Virus record (IMG/VR): IMGVR_UViG_3300030708_002291
Span: 1 to 53,406 of that record
Strand: one strand, 5' to 3'
DNA: 53,406 nt
From: a virus
Taxonomy: Duplodnaviria > Caudoviricetes
A program made the translations under genes and the position numbers. The notes below the pieces were generated by a model. That model was given only the letters and a program-made list of their open reading frames with translations. It had not been told where the DNA came from and ran no database searches. Within the stretch, counting starts at the first letter, position 1; each line of letters begins with the position of its first letter. Positions 1-35,009 of the stretch are shown here, piece by piece.

Positions 1-357
1 CCTACCCCCGCCACTACCTAGAAATTCAGGGCCCCTTTGACGCCTTGCCAATCTAGCAGGCGATCCTATGGAGAGATCCGCATCGTGCATCGCCTCATGC
101 ATGATGGTTCTCATGATTTCATCTTGCGCTGATCTGCTCCCTCTGCGAAATACCGGAAGTTGGATGAATGAGTTGTCAGTCACAACCCTGTCTCTAGGCG
201 AGTATTCCAGATTCCCCTCCGAGTCGTATCCAATGGGGACTCGATACTTGTATTCCTCAAGACCGGGAGATGAATAGCCACGGGCCCCCTTGGATCCTTG
301 GTCATCGAAGCGAAAGTCGATCTTAGAGAGATTCCAAGCCTTGTCGAACGCACTCAT
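1..357 (-). CDS. Leader-tagged putative zincin metalloprotease (partial, runs off the left edge; not in the ORF track)
   Basis: Manual translation from ATG at 357 gives MSAFDKAWNLSKIDFRFDD...EIMRTIMHEAMHDADLS with no stop before base 1. Contains HExxH and the shared AFxxAW leader. Confidence 0.7.
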   Translation of the reverse strand, partial: MSAFDKAWNLSKIDFRFDDQGSKGARGYSSPGLEEYKYRVPIGYDSEGNLEYSPRDRVVTDNSFIQLPVFRRGSRSAQDEIMRTIMHEAMHDADLSIGSPARLARRQRGPEFLGSGGGR

Positions 358-362
358 TCCAA

Positions 363-1751
363 TCAGACTCCATCAGGGTATTTCAAGTGGCATTCGTCGC
401 ACATGCCCTCGTTATCAGCATGATCGTACACATCCATATCTTTATCGCATCCGTAGCAACCATATCTGGCCAATTCGGTCAAGTCGCCCTCACTCAAGTC
501 GTAAGGGGTTTTAGCCGCTCCCATCGCCTCAGGGCTGAAATACTCAACCCGACCATCAATGCCGTGAAAAACCTCGTATGCGACGGGCAGGACAGTCCCA
601 TCGGCCAGTTCAAAATCGCGCATTTGCTGAATTTCCTTGGATGACCTAATATTTCCATATTCAGGGTGATACAGATGCAGATCCCAATCCATCGAATCTA
701 TCGGAGCCTCCTCCTTCAAGACATCCCAAGCCTCGCGGAAGATCTCACCCTCCGATCTCCTCATTATCTGGAAGTCCTCTGGGAACGCCTCCGTCCCGAC
801 AGACACGTCTCCCATGTCCTCCATCGGCCCGAACTCCCTGTCGATCCTGTCTAAACGCCTTCTCTCCTGCATGGTGTTGAGCAGGTCGGCGGCCTCTGAG
901 GACAGCAGTCGCCTAAAGGCAGCAGCGGCCTCAGGTTCCATCTGTCGAGTGAGAGCATCTGCGAACACGGGCGTGTCCTCCCCAGCGCCCTCCGGCTTGG
1001 CCAGAGCGGTCAGACGCTTGGTGTCGCTCGCCTTCGCGCCGCGTGTCCTCGGCAGATACTGGCCACCGAATCCATCGAGTTCGTATCTGGTGGTATCATA
1101 GAAGTCCTCCATAATTCTAGGCGGCCTCGCTCTGCCTTGGTCCGTCAACCTCCCCAAATCCCTGACTGGCACATCCATCAGTCTGGCGTTTATCAATGCC
1201 CTCATGGTATCATATACGCTTGTCTTTGTGTTTCCACTCTTCTTTTTAGCATCTTCATTGATCATATTGAAGTGGTGGTCGGGAAGAAAATAGCCGTCTT
1301 GCCTCCTGCCTTGCACCACCCTCATATGATCGGTGTCAGATGTCTCATCTGCGATCTCCTCACGGGTCTTCACCCCGTCTCTGACATCCTGCAAGTTCTG
1401 CGACATCGTAGTGAGCGTGTCTATCTCCTCCTCTGGAGTGCCGAAATTGAACGACTCAGGGACGAGTCCCGCCTCACGGGCGAGTATGTTGTCCTCTCTG
1501 AAATCCTCTGGACGGTTAGAGCCCCCGGCGGCACTCACCAACTCGTCATATTCCAATGGCCTGTTGAACTCCAAAGCCATTCTGGCAGCGTTGAGGGCAG
1601 GCCCCTCGTTGAAGAAGCCGGTTTTGTAGTGGGGCGTGTTGTAAAACCAATCCCGATTCAGAAAATGCATGTATCTGTCGCCAGCGGAGGGCGCATCCTG
1701 ACCCGGTGTCCTGATCGTATCCCGGTTGAATCGCCGTCTGACCATGGTCAA
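363..1751 (-). CDS. Hypothetical protein (462 aa) with an internal FREAWDVLK tag before a C-terminal module ending in two CxxC
   Basis: Long ORF overlapping the upstream gene by ATGA; internal copy of the leader motif; CYGC...CDEC at the C-terminus. Confidence 0.75.
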   Translation of the reverse strand: MTMVRRRFNRDTIRTPGQDAPSAGDRYMHFLNRDWFYNTPHYKTGFFNEGPALNAARMALEFNRPLEYDELVSAAGGSNRPEDFREDNILAREAGLVPESFNFGTPEEEIDTLTTMSQNLQDVRDGVKTREEIADETSDTDHMRVVQGRRQDGYFLPDHHFNMINEDAKKKSGNTKTSVYDTMRALINARLMDVPVRDLGRLTDQGRARPPRIMEDFYDTTRYELDGFGGQYLPRTRGAKASDTKRLTALAKPEGAGEDTPVFADALTRQMEPEAAAAFRRLLSSEAADLLNTMQERRRLDRIDREFGPMEDMGDVSVGTEAFPEDFQIMRRSEGEIFREAWDVLKEEAPIDSMDWDLHLYHPEYGNIRSSKEIQQMRDFELADGTVLPVAYEVFHGIDGRVEYFSPEAMGAAKTPYDLSEGDLTELARYGCYGCDKDMDVYDHADNEGMCDECHLKYPDGV

Positions 1752-2251
1752 TCACCCCTCTCCTCGTTCATTCGCCTGAGTTTCTTCATCATCTCCTGCA
1801 TCTGGTCGCTATACATCGGGTTGTCATACATCATGATGCCGGGATTGCCTGCCGACCTGTCCTCGTTCGACGGTCTTCCTCTGGCTTCTATGTTCGGGAG
1901 GATGTCTTCACGGGGAATGGGCTCTGATGACTCCACGACATCACCCTCTCTCGTCTTGTAGTCCGAGCCCATCAAGAGGGGTATCATCATGGGGCTGTGA
2001 TCTCCGGCGGGCTCGATTCGCGGGTCGCCCTCGTCACGCCAGAACGGTATATTCGCTATTCTGGGAGAATCCTGCCTCGCGTATGACATCCACCTCGCAG
2101 AGAGATCAGGGTCCTTGGTTGCATACACCACTCCATCCATTCCGGGCTTTATCCCCTCAGATAGGATGGACATGAGGTTGTCCTCTGGCGTTGCATGGTA
2201 GTACCAAGGCGCTTTCACAAGATTCCAAGCCGCTGTGAAGGCGTCCGCCAT
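1748..2251 (-). CDS. Leader-tagged ADP-ribosyltransferase-fold protein (Tpt1/KptA-like H-x-T class)
   Basis: MADAFTAAWNLVK leader followed by YYHATPEDNLMSILSEGIKPG...VYAT, matching the YHxT...I..EG(L/I)...VY(L/A)(S/T) pattern of ART-fold domains. Confidence 0.6.
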   Translation of the reverse strand: MADAFTAAWNLVKAPWYYHATPEDNLMSILSEGIKPGMDGVVYATKDPDLSARWMSYARQDSPRIANIPFWRDEGDPRIEPAGDHSPMMIPLLMGSDYKTREGDVVESSEPIPREDILPNIEARGRPSNEDRSAGNPGIMMYDNPMYSDQMQEMMKKLRRMNEERGD

Positions 2252-2518
2252 GGTCGTTCATGCATTACAATGCTTGAGAAGGGTTTCGGATCGACAGGAA
2301 TGACAGGAATTCTCCGAGAAAATTTTTCCGCGTATTTTTTCAGGGCCCATTGGCTGCATTGAATCCTGTCAGGGCTGTCAGAAAAAAAATCACGAAAATA
2401 TCCGCCGAGCGTATGTGGTCAGGGGCGCGGGTCGCACGAAAAAAAAAAAAAATTGGGCCTGCAAGCGGAGAAAAAATCGTGGTACTGCGCCCCGATTCCC
2501 ACGCCCAGCCCCCACCAG

Positions 2519-2539
2519 CGCCCACCTGAAAGGTGGGCG
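2519..2539. repeat. Perfect inverted repeat CGCCCACCT-GAA-AGGTGGGCG
   Basis: 9-bp stem with a 3-nt loop, read directly from the sequence. Confidence 0.9.
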
Positions 2540-2604
2540 TGTACGGGCCGGGTGTAGGGGCTCAGTGGTGCGGTTTGGGGGGGTGGCGCACCCACTCGCC
2601 CACC

Positions 2605-2812
2605 CATTGCCCGCATTGCCTGAGGTTTTTTTTCTCGCATTGCCCGCATTGCCCAGCACCCCCACCAAACCACCTCTCCAACGATCAAAATCCGGGCGTT
2701 TTCAGGCCTGTTTTTGGTGCTGGGTGGGCAGGTGGGGGGACGTGCCCGGCCACGCCCAGCAACCCCCATCCAGAGCCCCAGAATCGGGGTTGTCAGCATT
2801 GCCAGCATTGCC
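2605..2812 (+). repeat. Three tandem pairs of CATTGCC with 9-nt period
   Basis: CATTGCC at 2605, 2614, 2638, 2647, 2797 and 2806. Confidence 0.9.
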
Positions 2813-2952
2813 AGTATTCCCCACCGACCCACCGCACCACCCACCAACCGGCGCTGATGGTGGGGGTATAGTGGGGGAGGATGGGTTGGTGGTCTAGCCC
2901 AAGACCGATGCCCTGAGAGCCTGTATGCGAGCCAATAGCGACGTGTATATGT

Positions 2953-2979
2953 TGGACATTATGGACATAATTGACACTG
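2953..2979 (+). repeat. Three imperfect 9-nt tandem repeats (TGGACATTA/TGGACATAA/TTGACACTG)
   Basis: Read directly; inverted TGTCCA/TGTCAA copies occur at about 3068-3080, 3121 and 3151. Confidence 0.75.
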
Positions 2980-3211
2980 GCCTTTACTGATACTCTGGCA
3001 CTCTCCCCAGACATCCTTAGAGCCCCTCTCTCCCCCCTCCCATTTCCCCTCTCTCTTATCCGGCCAATGTCAAGTGTCCAAGATAGCCCCAGAACCGATG
3101 CACTGCTAAGGTGGACAGCATGTCAAACATGGGCTGCGATTCGGCCATTATGTCCATCGAAAACCGAAACCCCGGAATCGAACCACTTCCGACATGGATG
3201 GCATGGGATAG

Positions 3212-3403
3212 ATGAACACATACAGAACACGACACAGAAACGACGCACTGCCCTGCAATGAATGCCTGAAGAGAGAGGCCGAGAAGCAGCGATTGAGAGC
3301 CCGGAGGATTGCCATCGCCAAATGGCTGGTTTCGATCATCTTTCAGGGGCTCTATCCGCTGTTTTTGGTTGTCTCCATAACCGAGGGTTGGATGGTGATT
3401 TGA
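3212..3403 (+). CDS. Small hypothetical protein, possible C-terminal membrane helix
   Basis: 63-aa ORF with CxxC and a hydrophobic tail; first ORF of the plus arm. Confidence 0.35.
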   Translation: MNTYRTRHRNDALPCNECLKREAEKQRLRARRIAIAKWLVSIIFQGLYPLFLVVSITEGWMVI

Positions 3404-3519
3404 TGAGGGAAAATTCAGTCAACAAGATTCTCCCCCCCTTAGTCCCCCCAATTTCCGAGTGCTTGATAACCCCCGACGGCTTCGATGACACCAGCCCACA
3501 GGGCGACGGAAGTGAAAAT

Positions 3520-4902
3520 ATGAATGCAAAAACCGTGAATGCAACGACAAAAACGACGAACGAGAAGCCTGAGGCCAAGAGATTGAGCCCTAAGGAGTGG
3601 AAGAAGGCCATGGAAGAAAAGTCCACCCAACTCATCTGGGACCGAGTGGTGGCCCCGATGCTTGAAGGGGACCTTCCCTCATGGAGCAAACCGTGGAAGG
3701 CGCAATACACCGTGTTTGGCAGCACCCAGACTCGGAAGGTGGACCTAGACCCCAACAGGCCATTCTGTGTTGACCATGATTCAGCAGCCCATTGTGTTGG
3801 ATACCGTGGCTTCAATCGGTCCATGCTGGGCCTGTTTGCTGGCGAGAGTGCCATCCCGGCATTCGGCACAGCGAAGCAGTGGGTGAAGGTGGCAAAGCGC
3901 ATCGCCAAGATGAAGGGCGAATCCACCAAGGACATGCCACTGGTCATCCCTGATGAGAACCAATCGATGTGCATTCCTCTGATGAGGCCACAGGAGAACA
4001 AGAACGTGTTTCTGGGCAGGTACGAGATCATGGGGAAGGACGGGAAGCCCATCATGGTCAAGTGCAAGAAAACAGGAGAGATGAAGCCCAAGACCAAGGC
4101 ACGATTCGGCATCAACTGGGGCGTCTGGAACTTCTTTGTGGTGTTCCCCTTTGAGGCTACCAACCTTGACCTGAATGATGTGATGAACTGCATCAAGTGG
4201 GAGAAGAAGGAGCAGGAGGAATTCGTCCCTGAGACTATCCTCAGGATGGACGAACTCATCAGGAGATGCGATGACCTTGAGAGCCTTGAGGGAGCCCAAG
4301 AACTGGCCCAGAAGATGCTGGCTCATGTGGCTCTGGCAGGTGGCCTGAAGCATGGAGGAGACAGGGCGTACTACACGCCGATGGCCGATGCAATCCAGAT
4401 GCCTAAGGCAGAGGATTTCAAGGGCAGCGACAACGCCCAGAAGTTGGCCCGATATGCCCACACTCTGTGCCATGAATTCAGCCATGCCACGGGCCACCAC
4501 AGCAGGCTCCGCCGTGACCTGTTGAACGGCAAGAGCAGCGAGAAGTATGCAAGGGAGGAACTGGTGGCCGAGATATCAGCGGTCATTTGCTGTGCCTCCT
4601 TAGGGATTGAAACCGAGGGGCCACAACATGCCACATACCTCAAGGGCTGGGCCAACAGGGTGGTCGGACCATCCCTTAGGGCTGAGAATGAGAATGCATG
4701 GAAGGAGGCTTGCTGGAAGGTCATGAGAGACGCCCAATCCGCTGCGGAGTGGGTGGCATACGGAACCATCCCAGAGGGCATCCAGAGACGCCTCAATGCC
4801 GAGGCAGCAGCCAAGGCCAAGGGGGAGGAAGTAGCCGTCCCAGACGCCGCAGGAAACGCCCCAGAGGTATCCTACGACAACCCATTGGAGGTGGTCGCTT
4901 GA
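3520..4902 (+). CDS. ArdC-like antirestriction/ssDNA-binding protein with C-terminal zincin (MPTase) domain
   Basis: PSWSKPW and YRGFN in the N-terminal domain; GGDRAYY..D.IQMP, HEFSHATGH.SRL.R and YAREELVAE in the C-terminal domain. Start moved to ATG 3520 behind GGAAGTGA. Confidence 0.85.
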   Translation: MNAKTVNATTKTTNEKPEAKRLSPKEWKKAMEEKSTQLIWDRVVAPMLEGDLPSWSKPWKAQYTVFGSTQTRKVDLDPNRPFCVDHDSAAHCVGYRGFNRSMLGLFAGESAIPAFGTAKQWVKVAKRIAKMKGESTKDMPLVIPDENQSMCIPLMRPQENKNVFLGRYEIMGKDGKPIMVKCKKTGEMKPKTKARFGINWGVWNFFVVFPFEATNLDLNDVMNCIKWEKKEQEEFVPETILRMDELIRRCDDLESLEGAQELAQKMLAHVALAGGLKHGGDRAYYTPMADAIQMPKAEDFKGSDNAQKLARYAHTLCHEFSHATGHHSRLRRDLLNGKSSEKYAREELVAEISAVICCASLGIETEGPQHATYLKGWANRVVGPSLRAENENAWKEACWKVMRDAQSAAEWVAYGTIPEGIQRRLNAEAAAKAKGEEVAVPDAAGNAPEVSYDNPLEVVA

Positions 4903-4934
4903 ACAACACAAACAACAACCAAGGAAGTGAGAAA

Positions 4935-5237
4935 ATGAATGGAAACAATGAGATGAAAACAACGACGAAAACGACGACTGAGAAGCCAGTTATGATCTGG
5001 ATTTGCTATGAGACATCTGGCGGCATACCTGAGGTTATGCTGGCAGGGGACGAGGCAGCAGCCCGGCAATGGTGGAAGTGGAACGTGGAGGACCGCTTCG
5101 ATGAGGAGCCATGCCAATACAACGATGGCATCACGGCACTGACTTCATGGGACGAGGGCCATGGTTTCTATGGCTCCAGCGAGGGCACAGAGTATCGCAT
5201 TGCTGTCATGCCCTTCACCAAGGGGGTGGCTGCTTGA
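4935..5237 (+). CDS. Hypothetical protein with N/T/K-rich N-terminus
   Basis: ATG after GGAAGTGA; alternative coupled TTG start at 4899. Confidence 0.7.
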   Translation: MNGNNEMKTTTKTTTEKPVMIWICYETSGGIPEVMLAGDEAAARQWWKWNVEDRFDEEPCQYNDGITALTSWDEGHGFYGSSEGTEYRIAVMPFTKGVAA

Positions 5238-5548
5238 AGACCAACATCCTGATTGAGATTGGAAGCCCATCTGGCAGCACCACGGAATTCTACAACAGGA
5301 GCGTCGAGTTGGCTATCCCTAAGGAGTTGGTTCAGGACTTCGTGGACACCATCATCGAATACGCCGGTACTGAGGCCAAGGAGGACCATTGGCAGGTGGA
5401 GGTACAGAAGCACGAATGGAAGCCCTCAGGATGGCGTGTATCGGGCAGGAAACCGACAGCCCATGAGTGGGAGTGCATCCACTGTGGGGAGGTGGTCGAG
5501 GACGGCCACAAGGCTCCCTCGGAATACTGTGAGGAGGCGGTCTATTGA
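5234..5548 (+). CDS. Hypothetical protein with C-terminal CxxC
   Basis: TTGA overlap with the upstream stop; GGGGGTG ribosome-binding site. Confidence 0.65.
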   Translation: MKTNILIEIGSPSGSTTEFYNRSVELAIPKELVQDFVDTIIEYAGTEAKEDHWQVEVQKHEWKPSGWRVSGRKPTAHEWECIHCGEVVEDGHKAPSEYCEEAVY

Positions 5549-5805
5549 GTGGCTACATGAGCGATGTTCTGGTCTGGAAAATCAGGGATGAACTGGACCC
5601 TCCATACCCCGGCTATGTGATGTTCTCATCGAGCGGAGCGGAGGAAAATATCGATCATCTGGTCGAGTATTGCGACCTTGACCCTAAGGACATCGAGGAG
5701 ATGGAGTATGGGGAGCAGGATACGGTCTGGATACCCCTTGAGGAGATGAAGCATGTTGACCCGAAGGAGTACGAGAGAATCATGTCCCTAAGGAGGGATG
5801 CCTGA
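5545..5805 (+). CDS. Acidic hypothetical protein
   Basis: TTGA coupling; GGAGG ribosome-binding site. Confidence 0.65.
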   Translation: MSGYMSDVLVWKIRDELDPPYPGYVMFSSSGAEENIDHLVEYCDLDPKDIEEMEYGEQDTVWIPLEEMKHVDPKEYERIMSLRRDA

Positions 5806-6147
5806 ATGAGTGCCCCAGAGCATTACCTGAGCCAACCGTATTGGCATGACCATCCATGGGACTACGAGGCCATGGGCCACAAGCCCGATGGAGTCAGGCC
5901 ATGTCAAGCCTGCTCCAAGCCAATCGACAGTGGTTGGGTGACGGAGTGTGGCAACGGTCCTTGGTGTTCCCCAGAGTGCATGGGATGGGACGACAGGAAC
6001 GTCATGGAGGAGGACTTGGAGGTCATCGGAGATAGCCTCTATTTCACCGAGTGGGTCGAGTCAAACGACAGCCCGGAGTGGAGGGCCGAGCAGAGGGCCT
6101 ACTACCAAGACGAATGGGACGATCTGGGAGAGGAGGTGGTCGCTTGA
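5806..6147 (+). CDS. Zn-finger protein (CxxC...WCSxxC, FCS/TRASH-like)
   Basis: CQAC...WCSPEC; resembles the protein at 30829-31044. Confidence 0.65.
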   Translation: MSAPEHYLSQPYWHDHPWDYEAMGHKPDGVRPCQACSKPIDSGWVTECGNGPWCSPECMGWDDRNVMEEDLEVIGDSLYFTEWVESNDSPEWRAEQRAYYQDEWDDLGEEVVA

Positions 6148-6257
6148 GTTGTAAGATTGTGATCCCCAATGGTGATGACATCCCATGGCAGGTCATGGAG
6201 TTGATGGACAAAATGGGCGTCGAGTATTGGGTTGTCGAGACGGAGGTGGGCGCATGA
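6144..6257 (+). CDS. Small hypothetical protein (37 aa)
   Basis: TTG start coupled to the upstream stop; ends in a GGAGGTG site and ATGA overlap. Confidence 0.5.
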   Translation: MSCKIVIPNGDDIPWQVMELMDKMGVEYWVVETEVGA

Positions 6258-6457
6258 AGAGGTTCCCAAAGTCGAAGGCCAAGATACAGGCACTGAACAT
6301 CTGTATTCACCAATACACATGGGTGGCAGGTTGTGGTGCAGAGTGGGCCATATCAGAGGGGACTGATACATTCGGTGCGCCTATCATTTGCACAGTGGAT
6401 GATATCGATTGGGCCATGGAATACCTAGACGAGAGATGCCAGAAGGTGACAGCATGA
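6254..6457 (+). CDS. Hypothetical protein
   Basis: ATGA coupling at both ends. Confidence 0.6.
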   Translation: MKRFPKSKAKIQALNICIHQYTWVAGCGAEWAISEGTDTFGAPIICTVDDIDWAMEYLDERCQKVTA

Positions 6458-6729
6458 ATCAGAGCCAGATTAGGACCCTCCTTAGGGGGAATGGGGCCAT
6501 CAGCACCAAGGAGGCATTCTATCCAGAGGATGGGCTGGCCCTGAAGCACCCTAGATACATCACATACCAACTCGGACAGTGCTGTGTCAGGAATGCTGAG
6601 ATGAAAAGCAGGTCGGCGCACTACTGCCGATCATGCGGCATGAGCCGGAGACTGGCTCACAGGATGATGGCTGAAGGTGTCGTGTTCCTTCAGTCGGAGA
6701 TTATCTCCATCGGTGGGGTGGAGATTTGA
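6454..6729 (+). CDS. Hypothetical protein with a Cys cluster
   Basis: ATGA coupling; CC...CRSC. Confidence 0.6.
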   Translation: MNQSQIRTLLRGNGAISTKEAFYPEDGLALKHPRYITYQLGQCCVRNAEMKSRSAHYCRSCGMSRRLAHRMMAEGVVFLQSEIISIGGVEI

Positions 6730-7031
6730 ACACGGAAAACAACAAACAAGGAAGTGAAAAAATGAATGAAAACAACGATATGAAAACAACGCAAAGAACG
6801 ATGAACGACAAACACGAAGGCCGAGAAGCATTGAGACAATATCTCTCTAGTGCTAAGTTCGATCTTCGTATGAAGCCCCATTTTGAAACATACGTGGACC
6901 TGCTCGCAGAGGTCAAGCGGCTGCGTAAGGAATTGAGCGAGGCAGAGGATGTCATTCAGATTGCTCTTGACCACACAAAGAATGACGATGACAGGAGATT
7001 GTTTGAGGACTTCTTGGAGGTGGTCGCTTGA
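6726..7031 (+). CDS. Hypothetical coiled-coil protein with N/T/K-rich N-terminus
   Basis: Shares a 45-nt 5' block with the gene at 4935; LLAEVKRLRKEL coiled coil. Confidence 0.65.
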   Translation: MNTENNKQGSEKMNENNDMKTTQRTMNDKHEGREALRQYLSSAKFDLRMKPHFETYVDLLAEVKRLRKELSEAEDVIQIALDHTKNDDDRRLFEDFLEVVA

Positions 7032-11644: not shown

Positions 11645-11697
11645 TAGGGTCAGATGAGGGAGAGAGGATATAATCGAATCATCATTCAGGATCAGCC

Positions 11698-13278
11698 ATG
11701 ACCATGATGGCAGGGCCGAACGGACAACCGATTTTCATACTAAGAGATGGCACAGAGCGAACGACAGGAAGGACGGCGCAGCACAACAACATAGCCGCTG
11801 CGATGGCCGTCGCAGATGCAGTGAGGACCACATTAGGTCCCATGGGCATGGACAAACTTCTGGTGTCGGGAGGTGGGGAGAACGTCCTCATCACTAACGA
11901 CGGTGCGACCATCCTTAGGGAGATCGACATAGACCATCCAACGGCCAAGTTGGTGATCGAGGTATCCAAGAACCAAGAGGAGAAGTGCTTCGATGGCACG
12001 ACATCCGCCGTGGTCATTGCTGGGGAGTTGCTCAAGGAGGCGGAGGGGCTCCTCCAGCAGCAGATACACCCGACCATCATAGCCAGAGGATACAGGATGG
12101 CCTCACAGGAGGCTCTCAAGGAGTTGGAGAACCTCGGATGGGGTCCAACAGGGGATGACTTCTTCGGCGTGGCACACACAGCCCTGACGGGCAAATCCGC
12201 TGAAGCCGCCATCGAGGTGATCTCCAAGATGTGCGTTGAGGCTGTCGGCATGACGGCAGATGGCGAAGCATTCGACATGGACAACGTGAAGGTCCTATCC
12301 TTTGAGGGAGGAGCGTATGATGAGTCAGCCCTCCTTCCCGGTGTTCTGGTCGAGAAGGAGAAACTCCACTCCACCATGCCTATGGAGATAGAGAAGGCGG
12401 ACATCCTCCTCCTCATGTCAGCCATAGAGGTGAAGAAGACCAAGACCGACATGCAGTTCAACGTCAATGATCCAGCGCAGGTCGAGAAGTTCCTCGCACA
12501 GGAGGAGAAGGCCATCAGGGAGATGGTTGACAGCATCATAGAGTCCGGTGCTAACGTCGTGGTGTGCAACAAGGACGTGGATGATCTCGCAGCGCACTAC
12601 CTCGCCAAGGCTGGCATCTATTGCATCAAGAGGGTGAAGAAGTCGGACATGGAGTCTCTCCATCGACTGACAGGAGCCTCTCTCGTCAATGACGACATAA
12701 GCATGGACGCTCTTGGATCATGCTCCCTTAAGGAGATCAAGTTCGGGGAGCATAGATGCACCTTGATCGAGAAGGACGGGGCGAAGACAGTCACAGCCAT
12801 CCTTAGAGGATCGACAGGACACTCAGTCGATGAGATAGAGAGGGCATTCGATGATGCCCTTGGCGTCGTGGGACTGGCATTCAACGATGGGACTCTGGTC
12901 GCAGGTGGAGGAGCCATCCATGCGTGGTTGTCATACCATCTAAGGAAACTGGCAACCTCCAAGGGAGGCAGAGTGGGGATGGCGATAGAGGCATTCGCCA
13001 ATGCCCTTGAGGTCATACCGAGAACGCTCGCAGAGAACGCCGGGCTTGATCCAGTGGACACCATCTTGGACCTGAGGAAGCATGAGTCATTCACCCATGG
13101 AGTCTCCACGGAGGACGGCATCGTGGACATGATAGACGAGGGCGTCATAGAGCCCCGCAGCGTCATCTCCAATGCCATCTCAGCAGCCACAGAGGCATCT
13201 GTGATGGTCCTAAGGATAGACGACGTGATCTCCATGAAGGGAGGAGCCCCACCAGCCCCTCCTCAAATGGGCATGTAA
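11698..13278 (+). CDS. ths: Group II chaperonin (thermosome subunit)
   Basis: GQPIFIL, TLGPMGMDKL, ITNDGATIL, DGTTS, AGGGA, IPRTLAENAG.D and LRIDDVI; GGAPP..MGM tail. Confidence 0.97.
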   Translation: MTMMAGPNGQPIFILRDGTERTTGRTAQHNNIAAAMAVADAVRTTLGPMGMDKLLVSGGGENVLITNDGATILREIDIDHPTAKLVIEVSKNQEEKCFDGTTSAVVIAGELLKEAEGLLQQQIHPTIIARGYRMASQEALKELENLGWGPTGDDFFGVAHTALTGKSAEAAIEVISKMCVEAVGMTADGEAFDMDNVKVLSFEGGAYDESALLPGVLVEKEKLHSTMPMEIEKADILLLMSAIEVKKTKTDMQFNVNDPAQVEKFLAQEEKAIREMVDSIIESGANVVVCNKDVDDLAAHYLAKAGIYCIKRVKKSDMESLHRLTGASLVNDDISMDALGSCSLKEIKFGEHRCTLIEKDGAKTVTAILRGSTGHSVDEIERAFDDALGVVGLAFNDGTLVAGGGAIHAWLSYHLRKLATSKGGRVGMAIEAFANALEVIPRTLAENAGLDPVDTILDLRKHESFTHGVSTEDGIVDMIDEGVIEPRSVISNAISAATEASVMVLRIDDVISMKGGAPPAPPQMGM

Positions 13279-24071: not shown

Positions 24072-24076
24072 AATGA

Positions 24077-25348: not shown

Positions 25349-25366
25349 TATGGGGTGTATTGATGA

Positions 25367-28387: not shown

Positions 28388-28435
28388 GAGGTCATATAGA
28401 ATAGCGGCTTTGGAAAGATGTCGGAGGTGTTGTAG

Positions 28436-29887
28436 TTGATTGGGGAATCTGTTGAGAATGCATCAAGGCGTAAGTGGAGTGACTACTCATTCGTCAATGC
28501 TCCATCGGCTGGAAGCAACTTCATACGGCAATATGTCGAGAGATTCAATACAGTATCATACTTCAATGAATATGCAGGCCTGCTATCATACTTCTATGTC
28601 TTGGGTCAGTATCTAGCACCATACATCAGGATACCAATACACGGTAGTCACATTGATTGCAGGACTCATGTATATTGGATTCAAGAGTCGAGGACTGGAA
28701 AATCAGTTGCATGGGACTTCACGGCTAAACTTCTCAGGGCGCTCGATATAGAGGCTGAGTCATTCACTGCTGGATCCGATGCCAAGTTGATAGGAACTGT
28801 CGAGAAGGTTCCGATCATGGGTGAAAATGGAAAGCCGACTGGAGATCATGACGTTGAGGTTATACCCGGCCTTCTCAATGGATACAAGACATTACTCTTC
28901 GATGAAGCGAGCGTACTGCTCAATGACCAGAAGGCATACTTCAGTGACAAGATATTGTATCTGCAACAGGCCATGGCTCCATTGGGTAGCGAGACGAACG
29001 TGTTAGTGAAGCATCTTGTGGGTGGATCAGTTCACACGCCATCTGGTGTGTCCTTATGGATGACTACGTTCCCTCCAAAGGATATTATGTCCCATGTTCT
29101 TGAGAAGGGTTTCTTCCAAAGAGTGTTCCTGTATCAGAACAGTGTAGACATAGAAACGAGACAAACCACCAGTGAGCATAGGATGAGTGGAGCATACGTT
29201 CCAGTCCCAGACAAGGTATGGTCGTATGATGATCTTGCTAAATCTATCAAGCAGACTGGTGACATAATCCGTGGCAGGATTCTCACAGCAGCAGGAATGA
29301 GTGAGGAAGACTACTCAAAACTTAGTGATGTGGAAAAAGAGAGGCTGGCGATAAAGCACAGATACGATGTGTTTCAGGTATCGTCCAACTTCTATCCTGC
29401 ATTGTTGAATGCGGTTGATGATTACTATGCCTTGGTTCGACAAGTCAGGAATGACAACATAAGGGAGACAGCCATGTCGTTCCTTCCGAACGTGGAGAAT
29501 TACACGCTGATATTCACTAACTTAATCGCTGCTACCATGGGATCGACCAAACTGACTAGCGATCATGTCATGATGGCGACTGAGATCATCTTCGACAACC
29601 TGAACAACCTGTTCATCTGGTTAGAGGAGAAGGAGTCATACAAACAGGCTAAGAATACCGAGGGTGCAATGAAGCAATGGAAGAAAGCGTGGGGTAAGTG
29701 CCACAAGATGGTCAACAACAGAGTGAACAGAGAGGTCGTTAGAAAGAGCCAGATCTTAGAGATATACTCCAAACTGACTGGTATTGCTGAAAGGACTGCT
29801 AGAAGGAGGATAGATGAGATGATAATGAGCGGGGTAGTCAAGACGGTCAAAGATGGAAGATTAGTCTTCGTGTATTTTGAGGTGTAA
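28436..29887 (+). CDS. MCM-like AAA+ replicative helicase with C-terminal winged helix
   Basis: H...I.ESRTGKS (Walker A), S.AKLIG, PG.L....LLFDEA (Walker B), LQQAM and GFFQR; no obvious MCM N-terminal domain. Confidence 0.7.
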   Translation: MIGESVENASRRKWSDYSFVNAPSAGSNFIRQYVERFNTVSYFNEYAGLLSYFYVLGQYLAPYIRIPIHGSHIDCRTHVYWIQESRTGKSVAWDFTAKLLRALDIEAESFTAGSDAKLIGTVEKVPIMGENGKPTGDHDVEVIPGLLNGYKTLLFDEASVLLNDQKAYFSDKILYLQQAMAPLGSETNVLVKHLVGGSVHTPSGVSLWMTTFPPKDIMSHVLEKGFFQRVFLYQNSVDIETRQTTSEHRMSGAYVPVPDKVWSYDDLAKSIKQTGDIIRGRILTAAGMSEEDYSKLSDVEKERLAIKHRYDVFQVSSNFYPALLNAVDDYYALVRQVRNDNIRETAMSFLPNVENYTLIFTNLIAATMGSTKLTSDHVMMATEIIFDNLNNLFIWLEEKESYKQAKNTEGAMKQWKKAWGKCHKMVNNRVNREVVRKSQILEIYSKLTGIAERTARRRIDEMIMSGVVKTVKDGRLVFVYFEV

Positions 29888-29889
29888 TC

Positions 29890-30606
29890 ATGGATAAGAG
29901 TCTATACGATTGGATGTTGGCAAACAACATGGCCACATTCAAAGTATTCACAACGACGGACCCAACTGGTCTGGAAAATGGGTGGAGATCCTTGCATGAT
30001 GTGAGCATCGACGCTGTGATATTCTTTGATGGAATGACCTTTGTCGTATTTCTGAATGATGATGTCCCGTTGATTACCACCGCTATAATCAATCCAATGA
30101 GAGTATTAGGGATGGAGGTCAAGCAACATAGGATGAATCAATTGCAGTCATGGCTGGACTCCGTGGCAGGAATCAAGTTGGTCGGATATGGATCGACCAA
30201 GTTCGATGGCCCTGTCCTCCTAAGGGAACATTATCTTGACATAAAGCATCAGGATGTCCTGAACATCGTCGGAGAGGCAACCGAGGTTCACTACGGCGAC
30301 TTCCCAAGAAGGATAGAGTTGCATGAACTGGCCTATTTGCAAGGACCATTCTCAAAGACCAGACATGTTTTCTCCTATCTATCAAGCCCACTATCTATGA
30401 TATCCAACTGGAGAAACGGCTGGGTGAGAACAGCCATCAAGGAGTTGTGCGGAGAGGTCGAGATGCTCGCAGGTCTATACAAGCACATGATGGTCAGTGA
30501 GGTTCTAACGATTAGAGATGAGAGGACTCAGCGGAAGGTCGAGATACCATTCAGGATCGACAGGCCCAGCGACAGGATAGAGATAGGGCCGATGGAGGAG
30601 GAGTGA
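29890..30606 (+). CDS. Hypothetical protein, possible degenerate RNase H-like/DEDD exonuclease
   Basis: LVGYGSTKFDGPVL resembles Exo II (VGYN...FD.P.L); Exo I and Exo III acidic residues are not evident. Confidence 0.45.
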   Translation: MDKSLYDWMLANNMATFKVFTTTDPTGLENGWRSLHDVSIDAVIFFDGMTFVVFLNDDVPLITTAIINPMRVLGMEVKQHRMNQLQSWLDSVAGIKLVGYGSTKFDGPVLLREHYLDIKHQDVLNIVGEATEVHYGDFPRRIELHELAYLQGPFSKTRHVFSYLSSPLSMISNWRNGWVRTAIKELCGEVEMLAGLYKHMMVSEVLTIRDERTQRKVEIPFRIDRPSDRIEIGPMEEE

Positions 30607-30791
30607 TGCCCTCCAAGACCCCATACAAGGACAAAGTGAGCCAAGTCTGCCCCAAGTGCCACAACAGGGTCCTCGCCATCAGGATAAACGGATTCTATTC
30701 CGGCTCCCGTGACAGGATCTTCCTCTGGGAGTGCCCATTGTGCGAGTGCGTCTGGAAGAAGACGAGGCCCAGACTGAAGGTTGCAGGATAG
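30606..30791 (+). CDS. TFIIS/TFS-type C-terminal Zn-ribbon protein
   Basis: CPKC.N...(hairpin)...FLWECPLCECVWK. Confidence 0.5.
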   Translation: MPSKTPYKDKVSQVCPKCHNRVLAIRINGFYSGSRDRIFLWECPLCECVWKKTRPRLKVAG

Positions 30792-30828
30792 AAGTTTCAA
30801 TAAAGGATTGACAACCTAGTGACGGTTG

Positions 30829-31044
30829 ATGTCAGCATTCGACAAGGCTTGGAACATAGCCAAAAAGGAAACGGCGAAATGCACAGAATGTGGCAAAGAA
30901 ATCACAAAAGGTTATCTCGATCAATCGGCAGGTTGGTTTTGTTCAGAAAAATGTTTGAACAAATATAGTCCCGGATTCATTGATTCACAAGAACATAAGG
31001 ATGCCTTTGAGAGTGGAGATACGGTTTGGACTACGGTGGAGTGA
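30829..31044 (+). CDS. Leader-tagged FCS-type Zn-finger protein
   Basis: MSAFDKAWNIAK followed by CTECG...WFCSEKC. Confidence 0.75.
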   Translation: MSAFDKAWNIAKKETAKCTECGKEITKGYLDQSAGWFCSEKCLNKYSPGFIDSQEHKDAFESGDTVWTTVE

Positions 31045-31049
31045 TAGAT

Positions 31050-31244
31050 ATGACCGCATTCGACAAGGCTTGGAATATTGTCAAAGAAGACAAAATGTTC
31101 GCACCGGGATTCTTTGACCGGGAGAGGAACATGAAGCGTCAGGCCACAAAAGGGACAGAATGCAAGGAATGTGGTATGCCGAAGAGGACATCCACGAACA
31201 TGATGATGCTTTCTGACGATGAAATGTGTAATTGTGAGGTATGA
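31050..31244 (+). CDS. Leader-tagged small Cys protein
   Basis: MTAFDKAWNIVK followed by CKECG...CNC; GGAGTGA site. Confidence 0.75.
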   Translation: MTAFDKAWNIVKEDKMFAPGFFDRERNMKRQATKGTECKECGMPKRTSTNMMMLSDDEMCNCEV

Positions 31245-31247
31245 CGA

Positions 31248-31664
31248 ATGTCAGCATTTAATGTAGCATGGGACATCGTGAAGAACGATGATGTGTCATG
31301 GAACCATATTTGGGAGGCAGGTCTTACCAAAGAGAAAGAAGGTGATGAATCTTTTCTTGTGAGACTCATTCAATTGCTCGATGATACAGGTCGTACATAC
31401 AGCGCGGAGCGCAAAGCGGTTGATCTGATGCTCAATAGTGAATGGCCAGTCGAAGATACGAAGGCCCGTATATACAGAACATTTCAAGGCACTCGGCCTG
31501 ATACAGCCATGGTGAATCCTTATGGGGATCGTAATAAACATGTATTCCTCAATGAACTCCCGCCGCCAGAAGTGGTGATGGACGAAGAGGAAGATAAACC
31601 GGGCGTGGTAGGTCAAAGATGGAGAACATCTAGTCGTGGGACGGAGTATGATATGTATGAGTGA
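31248..31664 (+). CDS. Leader-tagged hypothetical protein
   Basis: Begins MSAFNVAWDIVK. Confidence 0.75.
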   Translation: MSAFNVAWDIVKNDDVSWNHIWEAGLTKEKEGDESFLVRLIQLLDDTGRTYSAERKAVDLMLNSEWPVEDTKARIYRTFQGTRPDTAMVNPYGDRNKHVFLNELPPPEVVMDEEEDKPGVVGQRWRTSSRGTEYDMYE

Positions 31665-31857
31665 CGCTTTCGACATGGCTTGGGAGATTGTGAAGGGGGA
31701 CAATGTTCCCACCAACCCTTCCCTATGGTCACAGGCCAAGTCCAAGGCCAAGGCCAAGTTCAAGGTCTATCCCTCTGCTTATGCCAACGGCTGGGCTGCT
31801 AAGTGGTACAAGTCAAAAGGCGGCGGTTGGAAGAAGAAGGGCAAGGGTAAGAAATGA
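31657..31857 (+). CDS. Leader-tagged small basic protein
   Basis: MSDAFDMAWEIVKG followed by PTNPSLW...KFKVYPSAYANGW..KWYK.KGGGW, a basic module I recognise from marine phages. Confidence 0.75.
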   Translation: MSDAFDMAWEIVKGDNVPTNPSLWSQAKSKAKAKFKVYPSAYANGWAAKWYKSKGGGWKKKGKGKK

Positions 31858-32474
31858 TTGCCAGTCCCATCTCCAAGTCAGTTGACAAGGATCTCAGGCG
31901 ATGGTTCAAGGAGAAGTGGGTCGATGTATCCCGCAAGGACAAGGACGGCAAGCATCCTCCTTGTGGCAGGGATGAGGCCAAGACGGACAGCAAGGGATAT
32001 CCCAAGTGCAGGCCATCCAAGAAGGTCAGCGAGAAGACACCAAAGACATCGAGAGGCATGAGTGCCAAGGACAAGAAGGCGGCTACTAGAAGAAAGAGAA
32101 GCAAGCCGCAAGGGGTAGGGGGAAAGCCGACCATGGTCAAGTCAACGATCTGTGATTGCGACACATGCAACACACTGGCCAAGGCCATGCTCATCAAGGG
32201 CAAGAAGAAGGACAAGCCCTTCCATGGATACAACCCGAAGAGGCACAGTCGCAAGGGTGGCTTGAATGCCGCTGGTCGTGCGAAGTTCAAGAGAGAGACT
32301 GGAGCCAACCTGAAGCCCCCTGTCACGGAGAAGCCATCGACGTTGAAGCCCGGATCGAAGAAGGCCAAGAGGCGAAAGTCATTCTGCGCTAGGATGTCTG
32401 GTGTCAAGGGACCGACCAGCAAGGGCGGCAAACTCACACCCAAGGGCGCTGCGCTCAAGAGGTGGAACTGCTAA
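31854..32474 (+). CDS. Highly basic two-module protein (possible DNA-condensing core protein)
   Basis: Module 1 LRRWFKEKWVDV..CGR..YPKCRP; module 2 GGLNAAGRAKF..NLKPPV..RRKSFCARM..KRWNC. Confidence 0.75.
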   Translation: MIASPISKSVDKDLRRWFKEKWVDVSRKDKDGKHPPCGRDEAKTDSKGYPKCRPSKKVSEKTPKTSRGMSAKDKKAATRRKRSKPQGVGGKPTMVKSTICDCDTCNTLAKAMLIKGKKKDKPFHGYNPKRHSRKGGLNAAGRAKFKRETGANLKPPVTEKPSTLKPGSKKAKRRKSFCARMSGVKGPTSKGGKLTPKGAALKRWNC

Positions 32475-32887
32475 TGGCCAAGTCCGATGCTCCTAATTAC
32501 AGAAAGGCCACAACCAACAAGAAGTGTGGCAACTGCAAGGCATGGGACTCAAGCAAGACCGACGATCCTATGACTGGATACTGTGAGTGGTATGACTTCA
32601 ATTGCAGGGCTGATCATGTATGCGATGCATGGGCTCCTGATGACTTTGAGAAGGCGTGGGAGATCATCAGGTCGGATGAGAAGGGCAAGTTCCGTGGATA
32701 CTCAAAGAACACCATAGAGGGCAGGGCAGAGAGGCAGGGCAAGGCTCGCGCATGGAACAAGGCTCGCAAAGTGAAGAGGGGCAGAACCAGACTGAGGTAT
32801 GCTAGGAACAAGACCCGTGGGAATGTCAGGCCGAAAATGAGAAGGCAACTCGGCGCTGGTGGCAAGAGAGAATCCGTCAGCAGATGA
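32474..32887 (+). CDS. Cys4 domain, internal FEKAWEIIR tag and Arg-rich tail
   Basis: NYR..CGNC..CEWY..CDAW, then DDFEKAWEIIRS, then an R/K-rich module. Confidence 0.7.
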   Translation: MAKSDAPNYRKATTNKKCGNCKAWDSSKTDDPMTGYCEWYDFNCRADHVCDAWAPDDFEKAWEIIRSDEKGKFRGYSKNTIEGRAERQGKARAWNKARKVKRGRTRLRYARNKTRGNVRPKMRRQLGAGGKRESVSR

Positions 32888-32888
32888 T

Positions 32889-33980
32889 TCACTCATGTCC
32901 TGCATGGACATAGGTTATCTTGGCGTTGGTCGGTGTTCCAGTGTATCCAAGACTGCCATTGATGGTGACTGTCTTTCCAGAGATGGTGAAGTCAGATCCC
33001 TGAACTAGGTTTGCTATGAATCTAGGAGTTCCTGTCTTGTATATCATGACCTCAACAAGTTTGGTCGAAGCCTCATCTTGAGATCCGAGCGGCTCAAAGG
33101 CAAGAACCACATCAGTGGATGACCCGTTGTAAGATGCGGTCTTGATGGATGTCCTGTGGACTGGTGTGATCTGGTATGCTCCTCCTGACGTTGTGGGGAC
33201 GTTGGCGCTGGTCGTCTGGTCGGACTGGAAGAAGAGGTGAGTCTCACCAGCGCCATTCGGGTATGACCCCAATCCAGTCGGGTCACGGGCGAACACGAAT
33301 CCCATGTCGGTGATGGGGAGGTTGCCCGTGTTGTTGGTGATGAGGGTGTTGACGGGGCTGGTAGCGGCGTTGCTGGAGTTGATGAGGGCGGATAGCGGCA
33401 GGGGCCCCGGACGTAGGAACACACGCTTGTCGTTCACGTTGCCCACAGCGACCCCGCTGCTGTATGTGAGTCTGACAGCGGCCAGAACGATGGTCTGCTT
33501 GTCGAGGTGGGCCGATGGTGATTGAGGATAGACGCCTGATCCCGTGTTGACCTCGTTGCCGTATATCATGGCGATCTTGCCCGTGATGGCCGGATCGACA
33601 TAGACCAGCAGTATCCTCTCGTAGTTGGCCCCGGTCAGGGTGGGGAGGGTGCTGGAGTTCTTGGGGAACTTGCCAGTGTGGGACGACGAGGTGATGTCGA
33701 TGGACGCAGCGCCTATCGAGTGGAACACCCCATCGAGGAGGACCGTCCCCGCTGCGATGGACAGCGTGGTGGACGAGTGGCTCACGGCGCAATTGCCCAC
33801 AGTGCTGCTGTTGCGATTGCTATCATTGATATCGTTAAGTAGGATGGGAACGACACCATTCAGAAGTCCGCGTTCGTTGAAGTTCGTGAGGGTCGGGCTG
33901 GTCAGTATGTCCTGATCCAGAAGTCCGTCGTCCTGATAACTCTGAGCAGCCCTCTCATGTCCCTCGCCTATTGTCGCCAT
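32889..33980 (-). CDS. Virion structural protein (tail fibre/baseplate-associated)
   Basis: End of the tail operon; S/T/G-rich; ISAG-like TLSIAAGTVLLDG and LA.V.......V.DKR patterns. Confidence 0.6.
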   Translation of the reverse strand: MATIGEGHERAAQSYQDDGLLDQDILTSPTLTNFNERGLLNGVVPILLNDINDSNRNSSTVGNCAVSHSSTTLSIAAGTVLLDGVFHSIGAASIDITSSSHTGKFPKNSSTLPTLTGANYERILLVYVDPAITGKIAMIYGNEVNTGSGVYPQSPSAHLDKQTIVLAAVRLTYSSGVAVGNVNDKRVFLRPGPLPLSALINSSNAATSPVNTLITNNTGNLPITDMGFVFARDPTGLGSYPNGAGETHLFFQSDQTTSANVPTTSGGAYQITPVHRTSIKTASYNGSSTDVVLAFEPLGSQDEASTKLVEVMIYKTGTPRFIANLVQGSDFTISGKTVTINGSLGYTGTPTNAKITYVHAGHE

Positions 33981-34321
33981 TACCTTACCTCCATCAGAAC
34001 ATCGACCCTGACCTCATTGTTTGATGTCTTGTCGATAGGCATGAACGTGGCCCTGAATGCAGGGGTGTCGAGGGCGGTGTCGCCATGGAGGACGATCTCC
34101 TTGAGCGTCTCCGATGATGTCTCGGACGTGGTGAAGACGCCGGACACAGATACAGTCCTGTCGTCTATCTTGGTGACGGATGGTGTGATGGTTATCTGAG
34201 GGCTACCCGCGCCCCCGTCCCTGCTGGACGCCTCTCCCCCACTCGACCCCAGCGTCATCCTTGTGACGAGTGTGGATAGGTGGTCCGCTAATGCTGATTT
34301 CAGTGAATCAAGGACTGGCAT
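33980..34321 (-). CDS. Small tail/baseplate protein
   Basis: LKEI.L......FR.TF.PIDKT...EVRVD pattern; tail operon context. Confidence 0.55.
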   Translation of the reverse strand: MPVLDSLKSALADHLSTLVTRMTLGSSGGEASSRDGGAGSPQITITPSVTKIDDRTVSVSGVFTTSETSSETLKEIVLHGDTALDTPAFRATFMPIDKTSNNEVRVDVLMEVR

Positions 34322-35009
34322 AGTCTAAGTCACCTCCTCCAAGTTTAGTGGTCATGACTCCTCTTTCATTATCCATTCTTCTTGTTTCAGGATTATTTTT
34401 AGTATGGAATGCTCCTCTTGCGTCTGCGAATGACGCTTCATCCAAAGCAGTTTCTAGTGTTTGACGGTCTGTGATTCCTGCATCCCTAATTGCTCTAACC
34501 AAACTTGCCCTTTCCAACTCATCTAAAATATCATCTTTTCCAGAATGAAGAATGGACGATTCAAAGTCTCTTAGGGGATCTGAGAAGTCTCCAACTTCAT
34601 AATCCATTCTAGGAGGGACCATAATTTTTCCATCCCTTACATCTTTCTTGAACTTAGCAGCATCCATCAACGCTCTCCAAGTTGGAATGTATTCTCCAGA
34701 CAGAGGGTCGTATTCAACTGAAGATCGGAACTTATCGCTGTAAAAATCATCTTCAGGGCCTCCCATTTCTCGATAGTTTGATGTTTCATAACCTCTACTT
34801 GAATCGATACCATATCTATCTCCTGTCCTTGGGTTAATGTTTGGATCACTGTCAAAGGGATACATGAAACTACTAAAGTGAGGGATCCTAGAACCTCTGA
34901 ATGCCAGATTAGCATCTTCATCAAAGTATGAAGGTGGTCGCCCAATTGGACTTGGCATTTTGAAATCGACATCTTTGACGAGATCCCAAGCCTCACTGAA
35001 TACGTTCAT
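34308..35009 (-). CDS. Leader-tagged hypothetical protein within the tail operon
   Basis: Begins MNVFSEAWDLVK; visibly more AT-rich than flanking genes. Confidence 0.75.
   Translation of the reverse strand: MNVFSEAWDLVKDVDFKMPSPIGRPPSYFDEDANLAFRGSRIPHFSSFMYPFDSDPNINPRTGDRYGIDSSRGYETSNYREMGGPEDDFYSDKFRSSVEYDPLSGEYIPTWRALMDAAKFKKDVRDGKIMVPPRMDYEVGDFSDPLRDFESSILHSGKDDILDELERASLVRAIRDAGITDRQTLETALDEASFADARGAFHTKNNPETRRMDNERGVMTTKLGGGDLDYASP

Follow-up and report, generated by a model that had tools for sequence, protein, structure and literature searches.

The window analysed here is a single contig of 53,406 bases, the whole record of this genome (IMG/VR record IMGVR_UViG_3300030708_002291), and represents a partial magrovirus. 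Nine of its proteins carry a motif of the form AFxxAWxxxK, at the N-terminus in seven of them, and the same motif recurs on otherwise unrelated proteins of related viruses. We propose, with about an even chance of being right, that this tag is a label for capsid loading and protease release, working like the capsid targeting sequence (CTS) of phage T4.

The motif occurs in the window far beyond chance. A six-frame scan for F..AW gave 11 matches, nine of which lie in long open reading frames (ORFs) and extend into x-[ILV]-x-[KR], while the remaining two (860, plus strand; 28221, minus strand) lack that tail and are in frames opposite to the coding strand. The nine are the copies listed by the first-pass annotation of this DNA, each confirmed at its coordinates. 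Seven are N-terminal, with Met codons at 357, 2251 and 35009 on the minus strand and at 30829, 31050, 31248 and 31657 on the plus strand, and two are internal, with the F codon at 740 (minus) and 32645 (plus). The degenerate DNA pattern TTYNNNNNNGCNTGGNNNNTNNNNAAR has eight matches in the window, the ninth copy ending in R instead of K. In 100 dinucleotide shuffles of the window, the mean number of matches was 0.02 and the maximum 1, and none reached 8; the motif is thus above background, as had been supposed. A profile hidden Markov model trained on 163 tags, all from contigs other than the window, scores the nine sites at 6.4–32.9 bits, whereas the best match in the reversed-sequence controls (about 258 kb in six frames) is 4.2 bits. 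The plus strand between about 3.2 and 30.8 kb, which holds replication and repair genes, has no tag copy, its best profile match being 3.6 bits, under the 4.2-bit control. The earlier statement that this arm is free of the motif therefore holds for this window. The genes carrying the motif, together with one untagged member of their array, are as follows.

1..357, minus strand: tagged gene running off the left end; tag MSAFDKAWNLSK at 322–357; cargo with HExxH (HEAMH).
363..1751, minus strand: 462-aa ORF with the internal tag IFREAWDVLK at 714–743 (7.4 bits).
1748..2251, minus strand: tagged 167-aa protein; tag MADAFTAAWNLVK at 2213–2251; predicted ADP-ribosyltransferase (ART)-superfamily fold (Tpt1/KptA-like).
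30829..31044, plus strand: tagged 71-aa Zn-ribbon protein; tag at 30829–30864 (25.4 bits).
31050..31244, plus strand: tagged 64-aa Zn-binding protein; tag at 31050–31085 (32.9 bits).
31248..31664, plus strand: tagged 138-aa protein of no known family; tag at 31248–31283 (20.4 bits); homologue in locus L068.
31657..31857, plus strand: tagged 66-aa basic protein, the first half of DUF5872; tag at 31657–31695 (19.1 bits).
31854..32474, plus strand: untagged 206-aa basic protein of the same array, overlapping the preceding stop; DUF5872 positions 53–110 and DUF6321 (E 3.4e-18).
32462..32887, plus strand: 141-aa protein with the internal tag DFEKAWEIIR at 32642–32671 (6.4 bits).
34308..35009, minus strand: tagged 233-aa protein; tag MNVFSEAWDLVK at 34974–35009 (15.5 bits); directly downstream of two giant ORFs of the tail module.

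The proteins behind these tags differ from each other. The seven window cargos that could be clustered fall into seven different BLAST groups, in agreement with the claim that they share nothing after the motif; ORFs 1–357 and 32462–32887 were outside the clustering. ORF 1..357 is 92% identical to L003:73–429, and its full-length homologue in the relative locus L003 has 502 aa. The internal tag of ORF 363..1751 separates an N-terminal part of about 337 aa from a C-terminal Zn-ribbon part of about 115 aa, and that of the 141-aa protein (32462..32887) stands between an N-terminal Zn-ribbon module and a basic C-terminal module. CxxC pairs of Zn ribbons are visible in the proteins at 30829, 31050, 363–1751 and 32462. 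An Atlas look-up of the 233-aa cargo (34308..35009) was uninformative, with unnamed viral clusters at a best score of 0.78. Two ORFs with a 4-base overlap share the DUF5872 domain between them, with profile positions 1–48 in the 66-aa protein and 53–110 in the next. The short tagged form is a separate ORF in five relatives, and so the split looks conserved rather than a sequencing error.

The anatomy of the tag was examined in 278 distinct tagged ORFs gathered from the window, two complete relatives and the flanks of pattern matches. The consensus is M-T-A-F-D-x-A-W-[DN]-[LIV]-[VL]-K, about 12 residues, often followed by [AM]-P. An ATG lies at most eight residues upstream in 247 of the 278 (exactly M-x-x-F in 208) and the only start is GTG or TTG in 18; the other 13 have no nearby start, one of these being cut by the locus edge and one looking like chance. 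F, A, W and K are each present in 246 of the 247 ATG-started tags, F, A and W being demanded by the collecting pattern itself. D occupies tag position +1 in 173 of them, and the two residues preceding K are L/I/V and then V/L. The residue after K is A (57 of 247), M (48), E (39), S (21) or G (16) in most cases, and the next one is P in 62. Codons at the invariant positions are mixed: the shares are 0.53 TTT and 0.47 TTC for F, and 0.60 AAA and 0.39 AAG for K, and three Ala codons are used at position 3. Codons at the invariant F, A and K are about as variable as those of neighbouring genes, so that it is the peptide that is under constraint. The synonymous variation noted in the first pass is therefore real, and it is near the background codon usage of the cargos.

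The tag has the character of an amphipathic helix. The mean helical hydrophobic moment of the tags is 0.52, compared with 0.28 in shuffled tags, and in the AlphaFold model of the 167-aa protein (1748..2251) the tag forms a helix of residues 4–13. Together with the codon variation and 121 groups of cargo, this supports the idea of a portable helix selected at the protein level on unrelated cargos. Internal, C-terminal or doubled tags are rare: two proteins have a second copy 2–4 residues before the C-terminus, and two have an N-terminal and an internal copy. Features of Sec or Tat signals were not found in the tag sequences, which have no RR, in which D, K and N alternate with hydrophobic residues and whose mean hydrophobicity is 0.13. 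A Sec/Tat signal peptide was rejected because the tag has neither an uncharged hydrophobic core (at least about 7 residues) nor a twin-arginine motif.

Two details of the tag should be noted separately. Met directly follows the tag K (position +9, for example L096:19098–19721) in 48 of 247 tags, against a background of 3.6%, and two database representatives of the ART-like family (P0055 and P0123) begin exactly at this Met. The Met could be an internal start giving an untagged form, or could only reflect differing gene calls. A variant with one extra residue, F-x-x-A-W-D-S-[IA]-x-x-K, is found in relative G002 (18983, 20618 and 83440) and in L016; it is mostly internal and under the profile threshold.

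The variety of the tagged proteins extends far beyond the window. BLAST sorts the 229 complete cargos with an N-terminal tag into 121 groups, of which 78 have a single member; the median length is 150 aa (interquartile range 96–205) and the span 50–590 aa. At E≤0.001, a Pfam match is found for nine of 102 representatives of cargo groups (DUF5872, DUF6321, Zn-ribbon types and helix-turn-helix (HTH)), and 93 of the 102 have none. Judging from sequence comparison, the internal copies are joints between fused modules. Residues 60–141 of the 141-aa protein (32462..32887), from the tag onward, match the N-terminus of a 594-aa tagged protein of the complete relative G001, and its internal tag is therefore a fusion joint. 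Likewise, ORF 363–1751 shares a 29-residue stretch around its internal tag with the database protein P0068, in which an ART-like domain directly follows the internal tag at the place where the ORF has its Zn ribbon.

The ART-like cargo of the window should be described further, as its family connects the tag with head-associated proteins elsewhere. The model of the 167-aa protein (1748–2251; pLDDT 72.5) has its best Foldseek matches with archaeal KptA/Tpt1 (E 1.5e-4 to 6e-3, TM about 0.4), followed by ART toxins and PARPs; the top match is TkoKptA (E 1.5e-4, TM 0.41). The predicted structure thus gives this cargo an ADP-ribosyltransferase-superfamily fold, and the ART-like call of the first-pass annotation holds at the level of the fold. 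H19 is invariant in 17 sequences of the family, while the other H-Y-E or R-S-E positions have no confident assignment. Searched against 1.84 billion proteins, a profile of the family detected 618 representatives at E≤0.001. Of the 150 best-scoring ones, 85 are at most 450 aa long, and 67 of these 85 begin with the tag. The other 65 are longer, up to 3974 aa; the motif is present in one of them, and they match the profile only from about position 15, after the tag. A Pfam scan of 14 of the 65 long proteins gave PARP, Tpt1, ART-PolyVal or exotoxin-ART families in seven, Phage_Mu_F in three, the anti-CBASS protein Acb1 in two and only a 2′-5′ RNA ligase-type domain in one, with no match in five. 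Such MuF-fused and polyvalent proteins are described as head-packaged and injected (Iyer et al. 2017, PMC5512222). By these sequence matches, the ART-like module rides in giant head-associated proteins elsewhere and bears the 12-residue tag here. A second cargo family (PIDVYSDRG..., 12 members; model pLDDT 71.9) has a best Foldseek E of 1.0, and in a wide VIA search it reached Z scores of 4.0 with KptA, 3.8 with Arr and 3.1 with Tpt1, all below the meaningful level; its model gives only a hint of an ART fold.

The placement of the virus rests on its relatives. Relatives of 92–108 kb carry an HK97-type capsid protein, a portal, a terminase and an S78 prohead protease fused to a scaffold-like tail (of 264 relatives, the capsid-gene search covered the 80 closest). 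Among named viruses, the haloviruses HCTV-1, HVTV-1 and HCTV-5 have the nearest capsid proteins (32–33% identity). A single-cell genome labelled Candidatus Poseidoniales contains one relative as a 106-kb contig, with a magrovirus capsid gene at 88% identity. The window itself has no head genes, the head module lying beyond its left end; in the close relative G012, the capsid gene is about 27–33 kb downstream of the tag array on the same strand. The replication arm of the window encodes a UvrD-type helicase, a PD-(D/E)XK nuclease, an ERCC4 nuclease, an ArdC/MPTase-PolyVal protein and a thermosome subunit, and the tail genes follow on the minus strand.

11698..13278, plus strand: viral thermosome subunit, untagged, in the replication arm (Cpn60_TCP1 E 2.6e-153; thermosome_alpha 591 bits).
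32889..53406, minus strand: tail module, with a tail-tube-like protein at 51693–53405, a tape measure at 49035–50600 and giant ORFs of 2082 and 2184 aa.

Because of the capsid genes and the Poseidoniales single-cell contig among the relatives, and because of its own thermosome, UvrD helicase and tail module, the window is placed by gene content as a thermosome-encoding tailed virus (magrovirus) of Poseidoniales archaea. The earlier call of an archaeal tailed virus is borne out by the thermosome, tape measure and tail tube of the window, by the HK97-type capsid and S78 protease of the relatives, and by the single-cell contig. The published description of magroviruses, as given in PMC5434244, matches, with a halovirus-like module of HK97 capsid, portal, protease and terminase, a genome of about 100 kb, a chaperonin in some groups and a link to Poseidoniales.

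Tagged genes are arranged in arrays near the structural genes of the complete relatives. G001 (108 kb, rated complete) has 16 tags, all on the structural strand. Its main array at 36–45 kb is followed by conserved unknown genes, terminase, portal, a 1137-aa protein, the protease-scaffold and the capsid protein, and one tagged gene lies after the giant tail proteins. In G002, a first array (20–28 kb), the head and tail genes and a second array (80.6–82.2 kb) are all on one strand. The arrays are hypervariable: a BLASTP match in G001 is found for only three of the 15 ORFs of the first G002 array, as opposed to 23 of the 29 ORFs of the head block. The capsid, portal, protease/scaffold, terminase and tail proteins of G001 carry no tag in the profile scan, and the replication arms are likewise free of it. 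Matches in scaffold, portal or protease, which had been anticipated in the first pass, were thus absent from the structural proteins of G001. Concerning the further idea of a swappable set delivered with the genome, the swappable arrays were seen and the cargo type and gene position fit, while loading and presence in the virion are matters that we infer.

The distribution of the tag follows the same group of viruses. The strict pattern M-x-A-F-x-x-A-W-[DN]-x-x-K matches 94 stretches in IMG/VR, often several per contig, and a looser pattern gives 16, 16, 11, 6, 2, 10, 17, 11 and 3 copies in nine large records, with a total of 1 in the reversed-pattern controls. A magrovirus capsid gene is present in 26 of 46 tag-bearing IMG/VR records, in identity bands of 78–88% and 64–67%. 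The 20 records that have no capsid gene consist of 18 fragments (6–44% complete) and two complete records of about 38 kb with a single seed match each, and these single matches are taken as chance. In 596 Gb of prokaryote genomes, the sole contig with multiple matches is the 106-kb Poseidoniales single-cell contig. The bacterial single matches come mostly from one ORF of Rhodanobacteraceae and otherwise from scattered singletons, and we treated them as unrelated look-alikes or coincidence. The ORF concerned is small, starts MIAFARAWDLVK and is kept in Dyella, Luteibacter and Rhodanobacter (L108, L125 and about 40 other loci), once per genome. The halovirus HCTV-1, the only named halovirus relative scanned, has no pattern match in 103 kb. 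From these pattern searches, the tag has so far been found in thermosome-encoding magroviruses and appears specific to this lineage.

A lead to a cleavage site comes from the head proteins. The residues L35-L36-K37-A38-D39 are invariant in 22 capsid proteins, the 65% clade included. Homology to the halovirus capsid begins exactly at that K, with LLK|ADSPL aligned to VSK|ADNIL of HCTV-1 at residue 103, and the preceding stretches of 36 residues in the magrovirus and 102 in HCTV-1 are unrelated. A lysine (K103) is likewise the residue after which the HK97 capsid protein is processed, and the enzyme there belongs to this protease family. The linker of the protease-scaffold is variable on the whole, but 19 of 21 relatives have two near-invariant [VI][IV]K motifs in it, which mostly read GNxxVIK. 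The end of the tag, [DN]-[LIV]-[VL]-K with A, M, E, S or G next, resembles both the LLK|AD of the capsid and the VIK of the scaffold. This likeness, a pattern match only, would fit cleavage after the terminal K and serves as a lead. The N-terminal ANAW...DLLK of the capsid protein was considered as a further tag copy and rejected, since the clade at 65% identity does not conserve the AW part, which leaves LLK|AD as the sole invariant portion.

A GNKN or GN[KR]x motif also recurs in three G001 head proteins (L095:9999–11321, the protease-scaffold; L095:14802–15686; L095:16922–18715). Sites of this type occur twice in the scaffold linker (GNKNVIK and GNRSVIK), in a 294-aa protein of the head module (PKGNKNKIGK, also in G002) and near the C-terminus of the portal (SKGNKNTDDPPALK). 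Judging from this recurrence, the motif might serve in processing or docking in the head.

From the motif statistics, the portability and diversity of cargo, the helix, the gene position, the hypervariable arrays and the ART fold, all observed, we infer docking, packaging, cutting and ejection as follows. Through the F/A/W/[LIV] face of its helix, a tagged protein would dock onto some conserved component of the procapsid during assembly, be it the protease-scaffold core or the inside of the capsid shell, and a fast-changing set of accessory proteins would in this way be enclosed in the head. The S78 prohead protease would probably cut off the tag after its last three residues (hydrophobic, hydrophobic, Lys), and at internal copies it would split the protein. 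The freed cargo would then leave with the DNA at infection. One label might thus do two jobs, the helix docking into the procapsid and the terminal hydrophobic-hydrophobic-Lys being the release site for the head protease, and any gene gaining the label by recombination at it would become an injected protein; this fuller version is plausible to us, though with somewhat less than an even chance.

Several points weigh against this proposal. The window array at 30829–32887 is on the plus strand, ending the replication arm and facing the tail module rather than lying on the tail strand; for this reason, late timing is assumed and not seen. Hydrophobic-hydrophobic-Lys is a common tripeptide, which makes the likeness to protease sites weak on its own, and the C-terminal copies, which end 2–4 residues past K, gain nothing from cleavage. 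Up to 17 or more tagged proteins per genome would have to fit in one head. Finally, a thermosome is encoded in the window and in eight of nine large tag-bearing relatives, and the helix might instead recruit its cargos to this viral group II chaperonin, which would fold or hold them; this alternative, already raised in the first pass, seems unlikely to us. All these chaperonins are of the thermosome type, and the ninth record, G009, is only 88% complete, as would suit such docking. The co-occurrence, however, may merely mark one clade, GroEL-type or chaperonin-less magroviruses being outside the comparison. Moreover, many cargos are Zn ribbons or basic peptides of 50–70 aa, which should not need a chaperonin, whereas the large multidomain structural proteins are untagged, and the thermosome lies in the replication arm and the tags in the structural arms.

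Binding to some other hub is a rather unlikely explanation in our estimate: the helix would attach to a host protein, a viral non-structural protein or a membrane, and localise or regulate its cargo in the infected cell with no packaging involved. Proteins that bind a hub typically share a short terminal motif while being otherwise unrelated, and an amphipathic helix with F and W that occurs N-terminally, internally and C-terminally agrees with it. Five invariant positions, however, favour a specific protein pocket over lipid, the arrays are tied to structural operons, and the cargos are of the same type as effectors that are packaged in other viruses. Clamp-type hubs usually have replication proteins as clients, and these are untagged; a clamp-binding motif (PIP/APIM-like) was considered and rejected because no protein of the replication arm is tagged. 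It is very improbable that the tagged proteins are one paralogous family from a single duplicated gene, in which the N-terminal helix is structural and the rest has diverged beyond recognition. The tandem arrays do suggest duplication, and several BLAST groups share [AM]-P-hydrophobic right after the tag, but the folds and sizes differ (ART fold, Zn ribbons, HExxH, DUF5872; 50–590 aa). Furthermore, the ART-like domain is present in 65 large proteins that match only past the tag position, and one and the same tagged module begins the protein in one genome and in another follows a different module to which it is fused. We hardly credit the view that the stretch is only a recombination joint, kept as DNA homology for swapping cassettes while the peptide has no role. 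Tags do stand exactly at fusion joints between modules in hypervariable arrays; however, the codons at the invariant residues vary almost as the background, so that conservation is at the peptide level, and nucleotide identity between tags is largely no higher than encoding of the peptide demands. Recombination at the tag may well drive the shuffling of cargos.

Other genes of the window should also be mentioned. The first gene of the replication arm (3262–4902) encodes an untagged 546-aa protein with a zincin-like MPTase-PolyVal domain and an anti-restriction (ArdC-like) PHROG match, and is a case of a polyvalent-type domain outside the tagged set in this window. The giant ORFs at 35012–41566 (2184 aa) and 41560–47808 (2082 aa) sit past the tape measure and the distal-tail position and have no Pfam or PHROG match; their counterparts in G001 and G002 have 2132–2513 aa and 40–47% identity. 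Between the tail tube and the tape measure, at the usual place of tail chaperones, is a 121-aa SAP-domain protein (51293–51658; E 9.8e-8), as is also the case in G001. In HCTV-1 (L300, NC_021330.1 70928–74560), the annotation gives a zeta toxin domain protein of over 1100 aa for the gene preceding the head protease, and this gene occupies the place of the unknown proteins of 1137 aa in G001 and 1148 aa in G002. It is possible that this place before the head protease is a packaged-effector position common to both virus groups.

Magroviruses are among the most abundant viruses of surface-ocean archaea, but virus and host are uncultured and most of the genes have no known function. Because they share the tag, dozens of orphan genes per genome can be assigned to one functional class. 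If loading is true, this class would consist of the proteins that the virus carries into the cell, likely the tools of host takeover and counter-defence. It would provide the first catalogue of proteins delivered into the host by an uncultured archaeal virus, including ART-fold enzymes, HExxH proteins, Zn-ribbon or basic DNA binders and about 100 unknown families. The tag combined with the capsid, scaffold and protease would then offer a simple way of packing foreign proteins into the shell of an archaeal virus. The literature searched by topic and by peptide string, which included the main texts of magrovirus papers, yielded no mention of the motif.

Among known systems, the T4 CTS is the closest in description. 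As described in PMC9026906, this N-terminal peptide of ten residues is enough to bring a protein into the prohead core and is cleaved off by the prohead protease. According to the same account, it is common to the unrelated, fast-evolving internal proteins IPI–III and the Alt ADP-ribosyltransferase, and small basic cargo is ejected with the DNA (PMC9026906). Here too, a short N-terminal peptide stands on otherwise unrelated proteins of one virus. The systems differ in that the present virus is an archaeal, siphovirus-like magrovirus with an S78-type protease, that up to 17–18 genes per genome and more than 120 cargo groups are tagged, with internal, C-terminal and doubled copies, and that the candidate cut is after Lys and not at the T4 site. 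By this analogy, which is one of description with the sequences uncompared, the tag would work like the T4 CTS and be set apart by lineage and protease family. If so, archaeal viruses evolved capsid-targeting peptides of their own, independently of T4, the phage in which such peptides have mainly been examined in detail. The cargo-loading peptides of encapsulins are also comparable: unrelated cargos dock inside an HK97-fold shell by means of a short terminal peptide, which may be placed at either end. Encapsulins, however, have no DNA, protease step or ejection, and their peptides are usually C-terminal; this likeness is again by description.

The phage P1 Dar antirestriction proteins form an internal head set that is loaded in order through capsid-lining adaptors and co-injected against host defence (PMC12810830). 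The difference is that P1 is a bacterial myovirus in which loading is performed by the adaptors DarA and Hdf, and no shared short tag is described in the available part of that account (PMC12810830). With respect to MuF-fused and polyvalent phage effectors, the ART-like domain of the window is also part of giant proteins that carry Phage_Mu_F, Acb1, PARP/Tpt1/ART-PolyVal, peptidase and kinase domains. Phage_Mu_F itself has no match in the 61 ORFs of the window (E≤0.01) or in 54 proteins of G001 (E≤0.001), and the tagged proteins are on this ground not counted as MuF or polyvalent proteins. Effectors of the MuF-fused or polyvalent type are described as going into phage heads and being injected in PMC5512222, and reportedly also by Jamet and colleagues in 2017. 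In those systems, effector and head-protein domain form a single polypeptide, whereas here the effectors are separate small proteins, each with a 12-residue tag. If the proposal is true, the tagged proteins would be the unbundled counterpart of the bacterial polyvalent and MuF effectors.

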